Below are positions 12,210-35,220 of a DNA stretch of 35,220 nucleotides, piece after piece. Source of the DNA: a virus. Made by a program: the position numbers and the translations under genes. The notes beneath the pieces were generated by a model. That model saw nothing but the letters and a program-made list of their open reading frames with translations, did not search any database and was not told the origin of the DNA. Positions within the stretch are counted from its first letter, which is position 1; each line of letters begins with the position of its first letter. The stretch is from the IMG/VR virus record IMGVR_UViG_3300045988_171378. The stretch is one strand, 5' to 3'.

Positions 12210-12238
12210 TTGACATAATACTTTTTAAACTCTATACT
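12210..12238 (+). promoter_or_regulatory. Near-consensus promoter of the moron gene
   Basis: TTGACA (12210-12215), 17-nt spacer, TATACT (12233-12238). RBS aaaggaga and ATG 12259 follow. Confidence 0.65.
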
Positions 12239-12258
12239 TTAAAAAAAGGAGAAGTATT

Positions 12259-12627
12259 ATGAAAAAAAAGACATTAAACATTTTAATAATTACAGTTTTA
12301 ACATTATCATTAACAAATTTTATAATCGTTTTAATCGATGTATTAAAATTTTTACCTGCTGATTTTAATTTTACAGTAGGTTGGAAAACTGCTCTTTTAG
12401 CAAGTACAATAAGAGCTTCTTTTTCTTGTCTGATAAGTATAATAATAACTATATTTTGCATTTTCCTAATGTGTAAAATAAATATAATCGAAATAAAAAC
12501 ATACTCCGGTGATTTTAAGGAATGGTATGAAAAAATGCGTAACGAGAGAAAACAGCTTAAGTTAGCAAAGAAAAAAGCTAAGCTGCAAAAACAGCTTGAC
12601 GAAATCAACGAAAAAGACAGCGAATGA
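12259..12627 (+). CDS. AT-rich moron: small membrane protein with Lys-rich coiled C-terminus
   Basis: Opposite strand to the surrounding tail genes, with its own promoter. Three hydrophobic helices (LNILIITVLTLSLTNFIIVLIDV, TALLASTIRASF, CLISIIITIFCIFLMC) are followed by KQLKLAKKKAKLQKQLDEINEK. Confidence 0.7.
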   Translation: MKKKTLNILIITVLTLSLTNFIIVLIDVLKFLPADFNFTVGWKTALLASTIRASFSCLISIIITIFCIFLMCKINIIEIKTYSGDFKEWYEKMRNERKQLKLAKKKAKLQKQLDEINEKDSE

Positions 12628-15254: not shown

Positions 15255-15283
15255 TTGACATTTTTTAATTCCGGTTGTATAAT
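15255..15283 (+). promoter_or_regulatory. Consensus promoter pointing against the late operon
   Basis: TTGACA (15255-15260), 17-nt spacer, TATAAT (15278-15283). Confidence 0.6.
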
Positions 15284-15289
15284 AATAGT

Positions 15290-15368
15290 ATAAGTGACGC
15301 TTCTTGACCCGACCGAGATATGCACATCGGAGTTGGGTTCCCCGTGCATGGGGGGGCGTCATTTTTTA
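15290..15368 (+). ncRNA. Candidate ~78-nt structured antisense RNA inside the late operon
   Basis: Closing helix GTGACGC (15294-15300) / GCGTCAT (15356-15362). Inner helices GACCC/GGGTT, CCGA/TCGG and CCCC/GGGG. A T-run (15362-15375) follows. No ORF. Confidence 0.4.
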
Positions 15369-15962
15369 TTTTTTTCTTTCTTTATAAAAAGGGCGTAAAT
15401 CATATAAAGTACTGCTTCCGTCTTTTCTTATTCCGACATTTAATATGCCGTTATATACTTCTTTATCCATTTTGACACGAACTTTATAATATGCAAATTC
15501 CTCAAATCGCTTATTCAGCTTATCTTCCGCTTTTGAAATGTGGTCAAATTCACCTACCTTAATCATTTCAGCTAAAGCAGGACAAACGCGCAATTTATCA
15601 TAATGATCTTGATAAGTCATTTTATCTGCCCCAACGCGTTCAATAGCAACAGTTCTTCCGTCTGGCGAGGCATATCTCCCACGCAAATTATCCATTATAT
15701 ATCTAAAAGCTAATTCTTGCCTCTCCTTCGGTGTTGTTGCGTTTTTAAGTTTCTTTTGAATATCCGTATCTAAATTGACTTCTACTATATTCTCTGAAGA
15801 GGTCAATTTATTTTTACCGTCTCCTACCCCCATAGCCGACATATCTTCTTTAGGGGAATCTGAAAACTTCTTTACAGCCTCGCGTATTTTATCAGCGTCG
15901 CCTTTACCTTCAGTAAACTTACCGTCATCCGCACGCGGATGTTTGCTTTCGTCAAATATCAT
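15366..15962 (-). CDS. Hypothetical protein with KHPR..GKF N-terminus
   Basis: Start refined to MIFDESKHPRADDGKF (RBS ggaggg). It shares the motif A(V/I)(K/R)K(F/Y)SD.P with 22985..23758. Confidence 0.5.
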   Translation of the reverse strand: MIFDESKHPRADDGKFTEGKGDADKIREAVKKFSDSPKEDMSAMGVGDGKNKLTSSENIVEVNLDTDIQKKLKNATTPKERQELAFRYIMDNLRGRYASPDGRTVAIERVGADKMTYQDHYDKLRVCPALAEMIKVGEFDHISKAEDKLNKRFEEFAYYKVRVKMDKEVYNGILNVGIRKDGSSTLYDLRPFYKERKK

Positions 15963-28494: not shown

Positions 28495-28603
28495 TTGCCT
28501 GTCCCTCCTCGTTTAATAAACTTTGCACTTTCCCTACAAGCGGTTTAATTTTATCTTCTCCGATTATGTCGTACAACATTATCAACAGCAAATATAAATC
28601 CAT
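28487..28603 (-). CDS. Small hydrophobic-start peptide (38 aa)
   Basis: MDLYLLLIMLYDIIGEDKIKPLVGKVQSLLNEEGQANA. RBS ggag. 8-nt overlap with the next ORF. Confidence 0.35.
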   Translation of the reverse strand: MDLYLLLIMLYDIIGEDKIKPLVGKVQSLLNEEGQANA

Positions 28604-28624
28604 TTTTTAAATACTCCAATTTAT

Positions 28625-28653
28625 TTGACTTTTTTAACTGCCTGCCGTATAAT
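28625..28653 (+). promoter_or_regulatory. Consensus promoter of structured RNA A
   Basis: TTGACT (28625-28630), 17-nt spacer, TATAAT (28648-28653). Confidence 0.7.
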
Positions 28654-28659
28654 TAGAGG

Positions 28660-28737
28660 GTCGAGGGGCTTAGGCAGGTTGTTTGCCCCTCGTACCTTTT
28701 CGCCGTCCTTCCATACTACCGTTGGGCGGCTTTTTTA
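28660..28737 (+). ncRNA. Structured RNA, copy A (two hairpins, the second a terminator)
   Basis: Hairpin 1: CGAGGGGC (28662-28669) / GCCCCTCG (28685-28692) with a 15-nt loop. Hairpin 2: GCCGTCC (28702-28708) / GGGCGGC (28724-28730) followed by TTTTTT. Conserved with covariation in two further copies. Confidence 0.55.
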
Positions 28738-28753
28738 CTGCCTCACATTCCGA

Positions 28754-28867
28754 TTAACTCGTTTCTATTACTAATAGAAATTCAAGTATCTCGGTATCAC
28801 TCCAATTTCTAGCCCGAAGTTCGTTTATTATTCGGACTAACTCGTCGCTCCGCAACTCTTTTTCCAT
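28754..28867 (-). CDS. 37-aa first ORF of the module A minus-strand operon
   Basis: MEKELRSDELVRIINELRARNWSDTEILEFLLVIETS. RBS aggtaaagga. Paralogue at 33260..33373. Confidence 0.45.
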   Translation of the reverse strand: MEKELRSDELVRIINELRARNWSDTEILEFLLVIETS

Positions 28868-28923
28868 ATTCCTTTACCTGCCTTTTTAGATTTTCGCAAG
28901 GTCTTTCTCAACCTTACGATTAT

Positions 28924-28952
28924 ATTATACTCAATTTTGATTATATAGTCAA
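28924..28952 (-). promoter_or_regulatory. Consensus minus-strand promoter, module A
   Basis: On the minus strand: TTGACT (28952-28947), 17-nt spacer, TATAAT (28929-28924). Confidence 0.65.
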
Positions 28953-28991: not shown

Positions 28992-29021
28992 TTGACAAAA
29001 TATAATCAAATATGCTATGAT
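28992..29021 (+). promoter_or_regulatory. Plus-strand promoter of the module A HTH gene
   Basis: TTGACA (28992-28997), 18-nt spacer, TGcTATGAT extended -10 (29013-29021). Confidence 0.55.
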
Positions 29022-29042: not shown

Positions 29043-29267
29043 ATGGCTGGAGCAAAAACTATAAAACAGTTAATGATTGAGCGAAATATAACAGTTAAGG
29101 ATTTAGCTGACGCTATCGGTATAATACCGCAATCTATGAGTAATAAGCTATATCGTGATAATTTCGGAGCTGATGAGCTCGTAAAAATTGCTAAAATTTT
29201 AGATTGCAAAATCGTCGCGGAAACCAACGATAGCAAGAAACAATTTATTATCGATATCAATGAGTAA
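29043..29267 (+). CDS. HTH DNA-binding protein, module A (74 aa)
   Basis: NITVKDLADAIGIIPQSMSNKLYRDNFGADELVKIAKIL. Paralogue of 34986..35198 (NISEAELARRLGVTPQTLNKKMHTDNFSTADLEQIAAAL). Confidence 0.75.
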   Translation: MAGAKTIKQLMIERNITVKDLADAIGIIPQSMSNKLYRDNFGADELVKIAKILDCKIVAETNDSKKQFIIDINE

Positions 29268-30924: not shown

Positions 30925-30942
30925 ATCTTTTTCTCCTTTTTT

Positions 30943-30978
30943 GTTTAAGAATTTTACAAAATAACTAGGCTCTTAAAC
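30943..30978 (-). repeat. Solitary CRISPR-like repeat unit (36 nt)
   Basis: The minus strand reads GTTTAAGAGCCTAGTTATTTTGTAAAATTCTTAAAC. It overlaps the stop codon of 30973..31155. Confidence 0.6.
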
Positions 30979-31155
30979 TTTTATACGGTATCCCATATAC
31001 ATATTGCTGTTTTCTTCTACCGCCTCTTCGCTTTCCTCTTCCTCGTCCATATATTCCACTTCCACTCCGAGCTTGTCCAATGCCGCGCATAATTCCGCTG
31101 CCGCGTCGAAATCCTTTACCTTTATTCTTTGTGTTTCCAATACTACCTCGTACAT
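30973..31155 (-). CDS. Small highly acidic protein (60 aa)
   Basis: EYMDEEEESEEAVEE. RBS gaaggag. Confidence 0.5.
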   Translation of the reverse strand: MYEVVLETQRIKVKDFDAAAELCAALDKLGVEVEYMDEEEESEEAVEENSNMYMGYRIKV

Positions 31156-31215: not shown

Positions 31216-32001
31216 TTAAACCTTGCCAAAATGAATTTTAATCAGTTCTATAAAGGCCTTATACTCTTTTCCGTAGATATTATCACCATGCGTTTCTTCA
31301 ACCTTTCGTTCAAACTCATTAAGCATGCCGCAAAAACACCCGCATACTATTTTTACTCCCCCATCTTTTTCAATAAATGCTGTTGTAGTATCAAGCCTTA
31401 AGCCGATTTTAGAGCACCATATAATATCTGCGTCACCGGATACACTCGCGTTGCCGTATACCCTCGCGTTGCCGGATACACTCGCGTCACCGCATACCCT
31501 CGCGTTGCCGTATACCCTCGCGTCACCGCATACACTCGCGTTGCCGGATATCCACGCGGCACCGGATATCCACGCGTCACAGCATACCCTCGCGTCACCG
31601 GATACACTCGCGTTGCCGGATACCCTCGCGTTGCCGTATACACTCGCGTTGCCGGATATCCACGCGTCACCGTATACCCTCGCGTTGCCGTATACACTCG
31701 CGTTGCCGTATACACTCGCGTTGCCGGATACACTCGCGTCACCGGATACACTCGCGTCACCGTATACCCTCGCGTTGCCGTATACACTCGCGTCACCGCA
31801 TACCCTCGCGTCACCGGATACACTCGCGTTGCCGGATATCCACGCGGCACCGGATTGACTTAAATTTTCCCCTTTTTCGACGTACCCGCCTAAGTCGCCT
31901 TTCTTGATTCCTAATGCTTTTATTGCCCTTACTGCTCGTATACGATAAAGCGTCACACCTGACTGTTCTATCGTAATATCTGTTAATTCATATTTCTTCA
32001 C
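31216..32001 (-). CDS. YdcK-like hexapeptide-repeat (beta-helix) protein
   Basis: The N-terminus YELTDITIEQSGVTLYRIRAVRAIKALGIKKGDLGGYVEKGENLSQSGAAWISGNA parallels E. coli YdcK. It is followed by 24 consecutive hexads G(N/D)A(S/R/W)(V/I)(S/Y/C). GTG start. Confidence 0.6.
   Translation of the reverse strand: MKKYELTDITIEQSGVTLYRIRAVRAIKALGIKKGDLGGYVEKGENLSQSGAAWISGNASVSGDARVCGDASVYGNARVYGDASVSGDASVSGNASVYGNASVYGNARVYGDAWISGNASVYGNARVSGNASVSGDARVCCDAWISGAAWISGNASVCGDARVYGNARVCGDASVSGNARVYGNASVSGDADIIWCSKIGLRLDTTTAFIEKDGGVKIVCGCFCGMLNEFERKVEETHGDNIYGKEYKAFIELIKIHFGKV
31420..31851. repeat. 24 tandem 18-nt units (coding hexapeptide repeats)
   Basis: Units such as gcgttgccgtataccctc and gcgtcaccggatacactc repeat head to tail. 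This keeps all frames on both strands open. Confidence 0.9.
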
Positions 32002-32406: not shown

Positions 32407-32416
32407 TCTCCTTTTT

Positions 32417-32452
32417 ATATAAGAGTTTTACAAAATAACAAGGCTCTAAAAC
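32417..32452 (-). repeat. Solitary CRISPR-like repeat unit (36 nt, degenerate 3' end)
   Basis: The minus strand reads GTTTTAGAGCCTTGTTATTTTGTAAAACTCTTATAT. It overlaps the stop codon of 32446..32706. Confidence 0.6.
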
Positions 32453-32706
32453 TTTATAAGCTCTCTATCGATTTTTTCACGCTGCTCCAAAAGCTCGCGG
32501 CGGCGCTCTTCTATGCGCTCGAAACGCTTGACGGCGCGCTCTTTAGCTCTATAAGCAGGATCCACTTTACGCGCATAATCGTCGCATAATTCCTTGTTCT
32601 TTTCGTATGTAAAAACCTGCGGCTCTTTCATCCAATCCTCGCCTTTAAAGATTGTCCCGTCCGCCGTTACCATAGTGACTTCAAAATTATGCGGTTTATA
32701 TACCAT
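32446..32706 (-). CDS. Hypothetical protein (86 aa)
   Basis: RBS agaggtg. C-terminal charged helix. Confidence 0.55.
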   Translation of the reverse strand: MVYKPHNFEVTMVTADGTIFKGEDWMKEPQVFTYEKNKELCDDYARKVDPAYRAKERAVKRFERIEERRRELLEQREKIDRELIKF

Positions 32707-32749: not shown

Positions 32750-32769
32750 CTGTCACCGCTTTCGTACAT
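32750..32769. repeat. Left arm of the 20-bp perfect inverted repeat bracketing the mini-array (partner 32871-32890)
   Basis: ctgtcaccgctttcgtacat is the exact reverse complement of atgtacgaaagcggtgacag. Confidence 0.95.
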
Positions 32770-32870
32770 GTTTGAGGTTTTACAAAATAACAAGGCTCTC
32801 AAACGATTTTGATTTCCATTTTAAATACCCTCTTGTTTAAGAGTTTTATAAAATAACTAGGCTCTCAAAC
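32770..32870 (-). CRISPR. CRISPR-like mini-array: 36-nt repeat, 30-nt spacer, 35-nt repeat (type II-like repeat; no cas genes)
   Basis: Minus-strand repeats are GTTTGAGAGCCTAGTTATTTTATAAAACTCTTAAAC (32870-32835) and GTTTGAGAGCCTTGTTATTTTGTAAAACCTCAAAC (32804-32770). The spacer is aagagggtatttaaaatggaaatcaaaatc (32834-32805). Confidence 0.5.
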
Positions 32871-32908
32871 ATGTACGAAAGCGGTGACAGACGATTTTGA
32901 TTTCTATT

Positions 32909-33112
32909 TTACAAACTTCCGTTTCCTGAAAAATAATTTACCAACTCGTCGATTCCGACCGATAGTATATCTGCTAATTTCGGAATTTGCGTTAAACTAG
33001 GCTTACACTTACCTGACGCCCAAAATCCTACAAGCGAACGCGAAACACCTAATTTTCGCGCTAAACGTGCACAAGTCATATCGTTTGACTTTAACAGTTC
33101 TTTAAAATTCAT
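32909..33112 (-). CDS. Cro-like XRE-family HTH protein (67 aa)
   Basis: MTCARLARKLGVSRSLVGFWASGKCKPSLTQIPKLADIL. RBS aaggaggt. Divergent from the CI-like gene. Confidence 0.75.
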   Translation of the reverse strand: MNFKELLKSNDMTCARLARKLGVSRSLVGFWASGKCKPSLTQIPKLADILSVGIDELVNYFSGNGSL

Positions 33113-33121
33113 TATACCTCC

Positions 33122-33150
33122 TTGACTTTTTCCTGCCTCTGCTCTATAAT
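33122..33150 (+). promoter_or_regulatory. Consensus promoter of structured RNA B
   Basis: TTGACT (33122-33127), 17-nt spacer, TATAAT (33145-33150). Confidence 0.7.
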
Positions 33151-33156
33151 AATAGG

Positions 33157-33246
33157 AACGGAGGGGCTTAGGCAGGTTGTTCGCCCCTCTTCCCTTATCG
33201 CCGTCCTACGCTTTTTGCATTTCCGTCGGACGGCTTTTCTTTTTTA
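33157..33246 (+). ncRNA. Structured RNA, copy B
   Basis: Hairpin 1: GAGGGGC (33161-33167) / GCCCCTC (33183-33189), with the same loop as copy A. Hairpin 2: GCCGTCC (33200-33206) / GGACGGC (33228-33234) followed by TTTTCTTTTTT. Confidence 0.55.
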
Positions 33247-33259
33247 CCTTTTTACCTTT

Positions 33260-33373
33260 TTACGTTTTTGCTAAATATGTAAGCATCTCAATGATTTCCT
33301 TATCCGTCCAACCTTTTGTGGTCAGATACTCGATTATCCGTTCGAGCATCTTGTCTTGCATTTCTTCGTCCAT
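33260..33373 (-). CDS. 37-aa first ORF of the module B (lytic-direction) operon
   Basis: MDEEMQDKMLERIIEYLTTKGWTDKEIIEMLTYLAKT. Same RBS context as the module A copy. Confidence 0.45.
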   Translation of the reverse strand: MDEEMQDKMLERIIEYLTTKGWTDKEIIEMLTYLAKT

Positions 33374-33424
33374 TCCTTTACCTGCCTTTTTATATTAGTT
33401 AGCCATTTCGTCTAACTTAATCAT

Positions 33425-33453
33425 ATTTTATCACACATTTTGTCTATTGTCAA
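33425..33453 (-). promoter_or_regulatory. Minus-strand early promoter, module B
   Basis: On the minus strand: TTGACA (33453-33448), 17-nt spacer, TAAAAT (33430-33425). Confidence 0.65.
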
Positions 33454-33518: not shown

Positions 33519-33908
33519 ATGAAAACTTTGAAACCATTAAGAAAAGCACTGAAACAAACACAAACGGATATAGCTAAATATTTAGGTATTACTGTATCTG
33601 CTTACGGCAATTACGAATTAGGGCAACGCGAACCCGATATAGCCACACTCAACAAGCTTGCCGACTATTTCGACGTTTCCGTTGATTATCTATTAGGCAG
33701 GACTGAAATCCCCAATGCTTACGAAAATATTGTTAATACGCATATAAAAAATAAGTCTGCCGATTTTATTTCGACAGACTTACCCACTGCTATAGCTGAA
33801 AGAATGCGCTCTCATAATTTATCTTTAGAAAAATTTAAAAATTTAACTCCTCAGCAAACTGACGATTTACTTAATATTATCGAGATATTTCTCAATAATC
33901 TCAAGTAG
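33519..33908 (+). CDS. CI-like repressor (XRE HTH N-terminal domain plus C-terminal domain)
   Basis: LKQTQTDIAKYLGITVSAYGNYELGQREPDIATLNKLADYFDVSVDYLLGRTE. 129 aa. Divergent from the Cro-like operon. Confidence 0.8.
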   Translation: MKTLKPLRKALKQTQTDIAKYLGITVSAYGNYELGQREPDIATLNKLADYFDVSVDYLLGRTEIPNAYENIVNTHIKNKSADFISTDLPTAIAERMRSHNLSLEKFKNLTPQQTDDLLNIIEIFLNNLK

Positions 33909-34264: not shown

Positions 34265-34483
34265 TCACACAGCAAAAGTATTTACTCGTAAAACTCTTTC
34301 ACTTTTAACCTCCGTAACGGGAGCCAAATAATTTTCTACAATGTCTAACAACTTTTCGCCTGCTTCGTAAGGCATTTCCTGCAATAACGCCGCGATAAAA
34401 TAATATAAAAACTCCGCGTTATTTTCTGTTTTCTCTAATACATGCGTCTCTTTTGCTTCCTCTGTGCGTATTCCTAAATCCAT
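34265..34483 (-). CDS. Small protein, FLYYFIAALL family, copy C (72 aa)
   Basis: NNAEFLYYFIAALLQEMPYEAGEKLLDIVENYL is nearly identical to copy A. The DNA at 34327-34430 is a close repeat of 28375-28478. Confidence 0.55.
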   Translation of the reverse strand: MDLGIRTEEAKETHVLEKTENNAEFLYYFIAALLQEMPYEAGEKLLDIVENYLAPVTEVKSERVLRVNTFAV

Positions 34484-34504
34484 TTTTTAAATCCTCCAAT
34501 TTAT

Positions 34505-34533
34505 TTGACTTTTTTACCTGCCTGTCGTATAAT
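34505..34533 (+). promoter_or_regulatory. Consensus promoter of structured RNA C
   Basis: TTGACT (34505-34510), 17-nt spacer, TATAAT (34528-34533). Confidence 0.7.
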
Positions 34534-34539
34534 CAGAGG

Positions 34540-34630
34540 GTGTCAGAGGGGCGGCAAGCGTTACCCCTCTGCCCTCTTGGCGCCGTTCGGTTTTGGTTTA
34601 GTGGACTTTCAACCGAGCGGCTTCCCTTTT
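34540..34630 (+). ncRNA. Structured RNA, copy C
   Basis: Hairpin 1: CAGAGGGG (34544-34551) / CCCCTCTG (34564-34571). Hairpin 2: GCCGTTCGG (34582-34590) / CCGAGCGGC (34613-34621), followed by TTCCCTTTT, a weaker U-run. Confidence 0.5.
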
Positions 34631-34775
34631 AGCCTTCCGCCTTAGCTTCCCTGACTATTTGAGCGGCTTCAGCGGCGTTCTGTGCTTCTGCTTCTATCCG
34701 TCTTGCTATCGTTTCAAGCAATGCGTTTAGTTGCGCATTCGTCATTCCGTTTGCCTCCATTTGCTCAACATTCAT
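34629..34775 (-). CDS. 48-aa first ORF of the module C minus-strand operon
   Basis: MNVEQMEANGMTNAQLNALLETIARRIEAEAQNAAEAAQIVREAKAEG. RBS aaaggaggt. Confidence 0.4.
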   Translation of the reverse strand: MNVEQMEANGMTNAQLNALLETIARRIEAEAQNAAEAAQIVREAKAEG

Positions 34776-34846
34776 TTGGACTCTACCTCCTTTTTGCTTG
34801 CCTTTTTATTCAATCTCGGTCGCTTGTCAACCTTGATTGTATCTTT

Positions 34847-34875
34847 ATTATAATCTATTTGGCTGATGTTGTCAA
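34847..34875 (-). promoter_or_regulatory. Consensus minus-strand promoter, module C
   Basis: On the minus strand: TTGACA (34875-34870), 17-nt spacer, TATAAT (34852-34847). Confidence 0.65.
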
Positions 34876-34985: not shown

Positions 34986-35198
34986 ATGAAATTTGCAAAT
35001 CGAATTAAGCACTTGCTTGTAGATTGCGGCAACATATCAGAGGCGGAACTTGCAAGGCGGTTGGGTGTAACACCGCAAACTCTCAACAAGAAAATGCACA
35101 CAGATAACTTTTCCACCGCCGACCTCGAGCAAATAGCCGCCGCTTTGGGCGTATCTTTCGAGGCGTATTTTGTCGCCACCGACGGTACAAAAATATAA
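34986..35198 (+). CDS. HTH DNA-binding protein, module C (70 aa)
   Basis: NISEAELARRLGVTPQTLNKKMHTDNFSTADLEQIAAALG. RBS gggaga. The 3' end lies in the terminal repeat (equivalent to nt 1-77). Confidence 0.75.
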   Translation: MKFANRIKHLLVDCGNISEAELARRLGVTPQTLNKKMHTDNFSTADLEQIAAALGVSFEAYFVATDGTKI

Positions 35199-35220
35199 GG
35201 TAACGCTATGCAAAAAAAAG
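35122..35220. repeat. Terminal direct repeat, identical to nt 1-99
   Basis: 99/99 identity with the start of the window. Confidence 0.97.

Follow-up and report, generated by a model that had tools for sequence, protein, structure and literature searches.

A conserved family of putative antisense small-RNA genes in the early operons of temperate phages of gut Clostridia

Plus-strand units in three early operons

In this study, we analyzed three related plus-strand units in the IMG/VR virus record IMGVR_UViG_3300045988_171378, the 35,220 nucleotides of which are referred to as the window. The units are located at 28625-28737 (copy A), 33122-33246 (copy B) and 34505-34630 (copy C), and each of them consists of a promoter followed by two hairpins. 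Comparison with related sequences supports them well as small-RNA (sRNA) genes antisense to early operons. The window represents a complete genome of ~35.1 kb, circular or terminally redundant, because both ends overlap (positions 1 to ~100 are repeated at 35120-35220). Its source is a temperate phage of gut Clostridia with a genome of ~35 kb, and a gene for a large serine recombinase (serine integrase) is present at 889-2304. The minus strand carries the structural genes and three early operons, from each of which a plus-strand gene for a Cro/CI-type helix-turn-helix (HTH) protein diverges (29043-29267, 33519-33908 and 34986-35198). These HTH genes have their own promoters at 28992 (11/12 matches to the consensus), 33472 (9/12) and 34927 (12/12).

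All three early operons have the same order on the minus strand, namely an early promoter, a leader of 35-60 nt, a small first open reading frame (ORF), the unit in antisense orientation, and gene 2, which starts 0-20 nt from the antisense −35 hexamer. The original prediction had placed the units antisense within minus-strand early operons and converging on the operon promoters, which is correct; each unit fills the gap between the small first ORF and gene 2. The early promoters read TTGACT-17-TATAAT in operon A (28924-28952, −35 at 28952), TTGACA-17-TAAAAT with a TG in operon B (33425-33453, −35 at 33453) and TTGACA-17-TATAAT in operon C (34847-34875, −35 at 34875; 12/12), all on the minus strand. 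They face the convergent antisense promoters of the units at a distance of ~300 bp. Gene 2 of operon A is a 38-aa ORF followed by a 55-aa ORF, and this operon continues to a DnaD-like loader and a helicase. In operon B, gene 2 is a Cro-like HTH gene (32909-33112, minus strand) with recombination genes downstream, and in operon C it is a 72-aa ORF.

As predicted originally, each unit starts with TTGACT, a spacer of exactly 17 nt and TATAAT (28625-28653, 33122-33150 and 34505-34533, plus strand), which corresponds to 11/12 consensus positions in all three copies. Judged by hexamers and spacing (17±1 bp), these are predicted sigma-70/sigma-A promoters. The whole window holds 13 promoter-like sites with at least 11/12 matches, whereas block-shuffled sequences contain 1.04 such sites on average and at most six. 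In copy B, the −35 hexamer is only 9 nt away from the ATG of the HTH gene at 32909-33112. The spacer of each of the three promoters also contains a short site, S2, which is described below.

The two hairpins that had been proposed downstream of each promoter were confirmed by folding of the plus strand, with z-scores against shuffled sequences of −3.9, −3.3 and −3.2 for copies A, B and C, respectively. Hairpin 1 is G-rich and is located at 28663-28691, 33161-33189 and 34544-34571; including an extra lower stem, it extends over 28655-28699, 33155-33193 and 34535-34577. In copy A, its upper stem is formed by 28663-28669 and 28685-28691, and its loop contains the sequence L, GGCAGGT (28673-28679), the minus-strand complement of which, L′, is ACCUGCC. 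In copy B, L is located at 33171-33177, and in copy C it reads GGCAAGC (34553-34559). Hairpin 2 (28702-28730, 33200-33234 and 34582-34621) is followed by a U-run, so that the hairpin parts of the units end at 28737, 33246 and 34630. By its stem and U-run, hairpin 2 qualifies as a predicted intrinsic (Rho-independent) terminator. It has a 7-bp stem and U6 in copy A (28702-28737; GCCGTCC/GGGCGGC, with a U·G pair that exists only on the plus strand), a 7-bp stem and UUUUCUUUUUU in copy B, and an 11-bp stem in copy C. The U-run that had been expected after hairpin 2 is strong in copies A and B and weak in copy C, where the tail reads UUCCCUUUU. The terminator loops are unusually long (15-21 nt). 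An sRNA expressed from copy A would span ~28660-28737, and for all units RNAs of ~75-95 nt are predicted. Their 3′ ends would lie 5-25 nt beyond the stop codon of the small first ORF, overlapping neither this ORF nor its ribosome binding site. The units are not free of ORFs, as had been assumed, since ORFs of 46-59 aa overlap them with a TTG start codon within the −35 hexamer. A coding role of these plus-strand ORFs was rejected, because this start lies upstream of any plausible transcript start.

The three copies are mosaics and not simple duplicates. Copies A and C have the promoter side in common (28595-28661 versus 34475-34541, 94% identity), and this similarity extends to the start of the downstream gene. 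Copies A and B resemble each other in hairpin 1 and in the 5′ arm of hairpin 2 (28663-28709 versus 33161-33207, 91%), and the leaders of their small ORFs are 96% identical. Evidence for compensatory changes from the window itself is therefore thin, because the hairpin-1 stems of A and B are identical and only copy C is informative.

A rearranged form of the element was observed at the end of the contig IMGVR_UViG_3300045988_182789 (loci L005/L011), where hairpin 1 is located between two inward-facing promoter halves. Here, an A/C-type left side is joined to the reverse complement of a B-type left side, resulting in a terminal inverted repeat of the contig. Since another contig of this phage (~36 kb) breaks within the same element, the junction probably results from misassembly or a chimeric read at a repeat; inversion at the hairpin is the less likely alternative.

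A conserved family of predicted RNAs with covarying hairpins

Scans of the elements against Rfam 15 at the gathering threshold and with E-values up to 10 gave no match, a search for tRNAs and tmRNA found none, and BLAST searches of the element region or of 25 kb of the genome against GenBank phages were negative as well. Relatives were obtained by pattern and protein scans of IMG/VR gut viral contigs, human-gut metagenome contigs and genomes. The genomes with family members belong to Christensenellaceae, Lachnospiraceae, a Subdoligranulum sp., unclassified Clostridia/Clostridiales metagenome-assembled genomes (MAGs), and Ezakiella peruensis. Other scans were less productive: anchoring on the small ORF yielded just seven, nearly identical human-gut loci in the metagenome contigs, and single-protein scans of viral contigs yielded few loci. 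The new matches of a degenerate scan with the hairpin only were merely chance hairpins of GC-rich phages, and a looser scan for promoter plus hairpin gave no clear further family members among the matches listed.

The promoter is conserved throughout the family. The relatives found via hairpin 1 (L004, L008 and L009) retain both hexamers and their 17-bp distance, whereas the spacer differs in sequence and S2 changes its place within it, and no family member without promoter was found in the hairpin-anchored scan. Other loci were found only via the small protein, with a 49-aa in-frame extension from a relative as query (L252-L266), and this sample is unbiased regarding the element. Also in these loci, hexamers and 17-bp spacing are kept and the spacers diverge; all hexamer variants are consensus-like (TTGACA, TAGAAT, and TAAAAT after TG, i.e. 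TGnTAAAAT).

Alignment of diverged members with MAFFT and RNAalifold did not recover the hairpins, the loop lengths of which vary. A covariance model was built from eight close members, and an alignment of 16 members was derived with it. With this model, copies A, B and C were found in the window with 86.6, 83.1 and 24.5 bits, diverged members were detected as well, and the pairings are preserved in relatives. In the alignment, 95.6% of the cells pair compared to 79% in shuffles, a percentage that is inflated by the fit of the alignment to the structure. Both sides change in 13/20 pairs, so that the compensatory change proposed originally holds when relatives are included. The covariation score was 0.40 compared to 0.145 and was reached by 0/500 shuffles, and slid controls gave 0.03-0.11.

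The same data were used to compare the two strands. The stems contain 19 G·U cells on the sRNA strand, compared to five that would be G·U on the other strand, with many G·U cells going back to one event. On average, the sequences fold 3.1 kcal/mol more stably on the sRNA strand, and in hairpin 2 of most A/B-type members a U·G pair turns into a C·A mismatch on the mRNA strand. A terminator with U-run was detected by an automatic scan in 19/21 members, with very different stem sequences between types; in L071 and L078, the remaining two, the hairpin and T-run are likewise present, with loops exceeding the length covered by the scan. Judged from these comparisons, the feature is real, and the units are members of a family that is conserved in phages and prophages of gut Clostridia.

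The small first ORFs are part of the conserved arrangement. Those of operons A (28754-28867, 37 aa, MEKELRSDELVRIINELRARNWSDTEILEFLLVIETS) and B (33373-33260, 37 aa), both on the minus strand, encode members of an ‘EYL..GWT’ mini-protein family of ~31-37 aa, which also occurs in L050, L070, L078 and L252-L266 and has the motif L.R[IL].EYL...[GN]W[TS]...I[ILV].[ML]..Y[LI]. In every case, the mini-protein gene is the first cistron of the early operon. The family has no Pfam or PHROG assignment, with Pex14_N as the sole sub-threshold match. The small ORF of operon C (34775-34629, minus strand, 48 aa) is unrelated to those of A and B. The small ORF products are acidic, hydrophilic and helical without a membrane segment.

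Two further RNA candidates outside the family were noticed. Within the minus-strand structural module of the window, at 15255-15372, a fourth plus-strand consensus promoter (TTGACA-17-TATAAT, 12/12) precedes a structured region of ~75 nt closed by TGACGC...GGCGTCA and a T-run (minimum free energy −31.5 kcal/mol, z −3.1). The region resembles a further gene for a small antisense RNA, and its sequence is unrelated to A, B and C. The second candidate, of ~150 nt, is present in two Oscillospiraceae MAG contigs, one of them assigned to Faecousia (L059, 5588-5750, and L073, 2249-2410; plus strand). It has a TTGACT-17-TATAAT promoter, conserved hairpins and a GCCGCTTCTCG...GGGGGGCGGT terminator.

Complementarity between the hairpin loop and two mRNA sites

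On the mRNA strand, the complement L′ of the hairpin-1 loop (ACCUGCC in A and B, GCUUGCC in C) is complementary to two sites, S1 and S2. Each module thus contains the loop motif three times, always in the same arrangement. S1 has a length of 7-9 nt, is flanked by A-runs and is located 3-11 nt upstream of the Shine-Dalgarno sequence of the small ORF; in the A/B type, it overlaps the sole plausible Shine-Dalgarno sequence. In copy A, S1 is GGCAGGT (28876-28882, minus strand), which is identical to the loop sequence of the sRNA, and its end is located 8 nt upstream of the small ORF's ATG. Copy B has GGCAGGT at 33386-33380, so that S1 and small ORF together span 33260-33386, and copy C has GGCAAGC at 34802-34796, 5 nt upstream of a GGAGG Shine-Dalgarno sequence (S1 and small ORF 34629-34802). 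S2 is part of the 17-bp spacer between the antisense promoter hexamers; where a Shine-Dalgarno sequence of gene 2 is recognisable, S2 lies 4-26 nt upstream of it. Its plus-strand sequence is CTGCCTGCC in copy A (28638-28646; the mRNA strand reads GGCAGGCAG), CCTGCCT in copy B (33132-33138) and ACCTGCC in copy C (34516-34522). On the mRNA strand, S2 of copy C pairs with its own L′ only via two G·U pairs, while it matches the A/B-type L′ perfectly.

Six loop types were found in the family, each with its own S1 at the same place: GGCAGGT in A, B and close relatives, GGCAAGC in C and L072, GCGGTGA in L016, GGCAGGC in L021 and L070, GCAGGTG in L050 and L078, and GGACGAGAG in L058. In a permutation test in which the pairing was re-optimised for each combination of loop and leader, the cognate assignment of loops ranked first among 720 permutations for S1 and within the top 3/720 for S2. 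Shuffling of the leader of individual loci reached the observed duplex energy in 0.8-5% of the trials. Within the family, the duplexes between spacer and loop mostly have energies of −7 to −15 kcal/mol (−3 and −5 in two weaker cases), compared to ~0 to −7 kcal/mol in unrelated promoter-plus-hairpin matches from the same scans. For L′ in the sense leader, folding predicts an unpaired state of 78-98%. The loci without S1 are exactly those in which the small ORF is absent or decayed (L032/37, L061, L065 and L071), and in the decayed copy L071 the loop and S2 have diverged from each other as well. The three-way S1-L′-S2 complementarity is significant.

Since S2 lies between the −35 and −10 hexamers, it is outside the sRNA and therefore pairs on the mRNA strand or not at all. 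In diverged S2 sites, changes within the helix are wobble-compatible only on the mRNA strand in L009, C/L010 (two changes), L047, L058, L072 and L032. These changes are suggestive of pairing on the mRNA strand and are not graded higher, because the overall comparison of helix lengths was mixed, with about seven members having the longer helix on the mRNA strand and nine on the other strand. A function of the S1/S2-type motifs as operators of the CI-like repressors was considered and rejected, since the repeats in the divergent promoter regions differ from them.

Interpretation and comparison with known regulatory RNAs

Antisense control, with or without transcriptional interference, is the leading idea, because promoter and terminator are conserved, the stems covary and the G·U pairs favour the plus strand. 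The surroundings, with divergent Cro/CI-type HTH genes, a serine integrase and a DnaD-like loader downstream, also speak for it. We consider it probable that each unit is a cis-antisense sRNA gene with its own housekeeping-sigma promoter and intrinsic terminator, serving negative control of the early lytic operons of a threshold or immunity type, and for the genes further downstream we likewise lean towards such control. The sRNA, of ~80 nt and made constitutively, would bind the early mRNA in the stretch complementary to it, which separates the small ORF from gene 2, and the first contact would most likely be made between L′, located in an open loop of 15-17 nt in the mRNA hairpin, and the sRNA loop L. 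The L-L′ pairing would set the expression level of the early operon via duplex formation and cleavage, and convergent transcription may add interference. Also, L′ could bind either of the sites S1 and S2 in cis, or the sRNA in trans. The sRNA would then compete with the S1 and S2 pairings or be excluded by them, so that antisense control would be coupled to translation of the two flanking cistrons. S1 and S2 may thus tune the access to L′, for which masking of the hok/sok type is a precedent.

Several observations weigh against this interpretation. The sRNA overlaps neither a ribosome binding site nor an ORF, and for this reason a classical block of translation is unavailable to it. S1 and S2, being located on the mRNA strand and identical in sequence to the sRNA loop, cannot serve as targets of the sRNA, and a simple antisense model would work without them; S2 is moreover imperfect or degraded in L253, L065 and L071. 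The transcript start was deduced from the −10 hexamer only, and the covarying lower stem of hairpin 1 begins just 3-5 nt after this hexamer, so part of it is probably present in the mRNA and absent from the sRNA. The terminator tail of copy C is weak. The fraction of paired cells is raised by the structure-fitted covariance-model alignment, and many of the G·U cells are not independent of each other. While the regulation by an antisense RNA that was suggested in the original prediction gains good support from the comparison with relatives, both S1/S2 and the lack of overlap with the ribosome binding sites had been missed there.

A more elaborate version of antisense control can be put forward tentatively, in which a previously undescribed type of three-partner RNA switch operates: L′ would pair with S1, with S2, or with a constitutive antisense sRNA that mimics S1 and S2 and acts as a decoy or competitor instead of a classical blocker, thereby re-routing translation of the two cistrons. 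It is similarly tentative to regard this switch as a portable module that exists in six or more orthogonal specificities and of which a single phage employs three copies to gate three early operons.

The sense-strand geometry is closest to that of the phage P4 CI RNA and the P1/P7 c4 RNA (Rfam family C4), which belong to leaders of early or immunity operons. In P4, a hairpin loop of the CI RNA is complementary to two sites of its own transcript, seqA on the upstream and seqC on the downstream side (PMC4825925), and c4 exerts antisense control of icd/ant (PMC8198154). The module described here is closer to this geometry, because its mRNA strand holds two covarying sites complementary to the loop that the sRNA would target, and both arrangements have their sites beside ribosome binding sites. 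By analogy, the mRNA hairpin (hp1′) could itself be a riboregulator, the L′ of which pairs with S1 and S2 and shuts translation of the small ORF and gene 2, acting in cis or, after processing, in trans; the plus-strand sRNA would then be an antagonist (anti-riboregulator or decoy) or of secondary importance. We regard such a same-strand regulator as rather unlikely. It would account for the significant geometry and covariation of S1, L′ and S2, for the position of both sites next to the two ribosome binding sites, for the S2 substitutions that are wobble-compatible on the mRNA strand only, for the fully open loop around L′, and for a lower stem of hairpin 1 reaching past the likely 5′ end of the sRNA. 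The perfect match of S2 of copy C to the A/B-type L′ would permit cross-talk in trans. However, a same-strand regulator leaves the strictly conserved antisense promoter with its 17-bp spacing and the terminator unexplained. The regulators of P4 and P1 are processed from the same strand and have no dedicated antisense promoter, whereas here a consensus promoter would make a complementary RNA mimicking the target sites. Also, the C·A mismatches of hairpin 2 on the sense strand in most A/B-type members disfavour a C4-type regulator processed from the sense transcript, the Rfam covariance model of C4 gave no match with E-values up to 10, and the helix lengths of S2 do not decide for one strand.

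The remaining explanations are less probable. The original prediction had also considered a PRE-like route with read-through into the downstream HTH gene. In this route, the plus-strand promoter would mainly express the downstream plus-strand HTH (CI-like) gene by read-through of the terminator, with a transcript antisense to the small ORF and the early promoter, as with lambda PRE or the PX promoter for prgX of pCF10. The order of plus-strand promoter, terminator, antisense small ORF and HTH gene (29043, 33519 and 34986) fits such a route, as does the weak terminator of copy C, and we still consider it improbable. It is not needed, because every HTH gene has its own promoter; furthermore, the terminators of A, B and most relatives have GC-rich stems and long U-runs and look strong in A and B, S2 would be outside any such transcript, and an antiterminator feature was not found. 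An effect at the level of DNA or transcription only, with bound polymerase as a roadblock or with collisions of polymerases, with GGCAGGT-type motifs as protein sites and with irrelevant RNA, would agree with convergent promoters ~300 bp apart and with the constant arrangement of three motif copies in each module. This is very improbable in view of the compensatory changes in both hairpins and the wobble-type changes of the motif, six variants of which would require six protein specificities; the motif is also non-palindromic and unrelated to the repeats of the divergent promoter regions. To a type I toxin-antitoxin system, with the small ORF as toxin and the sRNA as antitoxin, we attach hardly any probability. 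A small ORF beside a convergent sRNA in a prophage agrees with it, but it fails because the encoded peptides are acidic and hydrophilic and because the sRNA, ending past the stop codon, does not overlap the ORF; in addition, the peptides are helical without a membrane segment, and a long early operon begins with this ORF. Attenuation driven by a countertranscript, as in pCF10, pIP501 and pT181, was rejected as well: it is unlikely because a terminator-like site is missing on the minus strand between the element and gene 2, and no U-run follows hp1′.

In comparison with other known systems, antisense control by the units is closest in layout to P22 sar (immI, Pant-arc-ant), a short terminated antisense RNA expressed from its own promoter in the first intercistronic gap after a small gene and directed at the operon promoter. 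Both have their own opposite-strand promoter within the first intercistronic gap. However, sar covers the ant ribosome binding site, whereas here only the promoter abuts that of gene 2, and the presumed transcript start is separated from the Shine-Dalgarno sequence of gene 2 by the whole promoter (29 bp) and 0-20 nt. Because this overlap with a ribosome binding site is lacking and there is no similarity to any Rfam family, the units are not regarded as members of sar, with which they share no sequence similarity either. They also differ by a Gram-positive Clostridia host and by three copies per genome, and we know of no S1/S2-type loop copies in P22.

With pCF10 prgQ/Anti-Q (and pAD1), where a countertranscript of ~100 nt is complementary to the region after a small ORF, the units have in common that the promoters converge at a distance of a few hundred bp, that the first ORF is small and that the host is Gram-positive. 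Anti-Q favours a terminator in the nascent sense RNA, whereas here no hairpin with U-run follows hp1′ on the mRNA strand, and the repressor gene has its own promoter. In hok/sok, the sense RNA pairs over a long range with its own antisense-target and translation region, thereby timing the binding of antisense RNA and ribosomes. The internal long-range masking of an antisense target is similar, while here a toxin is absent, the architecture is different, and the internal partners copy the sRNA loop at two ribosome binding sites. Lambda OOP resembles the units in being a short antisense RNA that is transcribed from a separate promoter, ends at a terminator and is encoded in a temperate phage's early region; it extends over the 3′ end of cII and functions via RNase III, whereas the units overlap no ORF and have no Rfam similarity.

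Antisense control of immunity is textbook knowledge for enterobacterial phages, with P22 sar, P1 c4, P4 CI and lambda OOP as examples. In the open-access literature, we found no description of such control in phages of the dominant gut Clostridia and none of the combination of features described here, with six covarying specificities and triple use per genome; as only open-access text was covered, this is weak evidence for novelty. The module would be a kind of riboregulation of phage early or immunity regions that joins a true antisense gene with the sense-strand seqA-seqB-seqC layout, in the form of a compact, recombining cassette with several apparently orthogonal specificities at every early operon of the phage. 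If true, this would provide a directly testable handle on lysogeny stability and induction thresholds of gut prophages, and also natural orthogonal RNA-RNA pairs with a built-in compensatory-mutation design.

Some other features of the window were noticed in passing. Within the minus-strand structural region, 12210-12627 contains a lone plus-strand ORF of 122 aa, which is hydrophobic, has a near-consensus plus-strand promoter and is moron-like. Operon B contains four copies of a 44-nt repeat (TTTTTGTTTAAGAATTTTACAAAATAACTAGGCTCTTAAACTTT-like) between its early genes (30938-30981, 32412-32455, 32764-32807 and 32830-32873), and the region of the last two copies gave weak Rfam noise matches of the miRNA-like hairpin type. 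In addition, a 261-aa ORF at 31216-32001 (minus strand) consists nearly completely of tandem copies of an 18-nt (6-aa) unit, 22 of them in register, (G[DN]A[SRW][VI][SYC])n.

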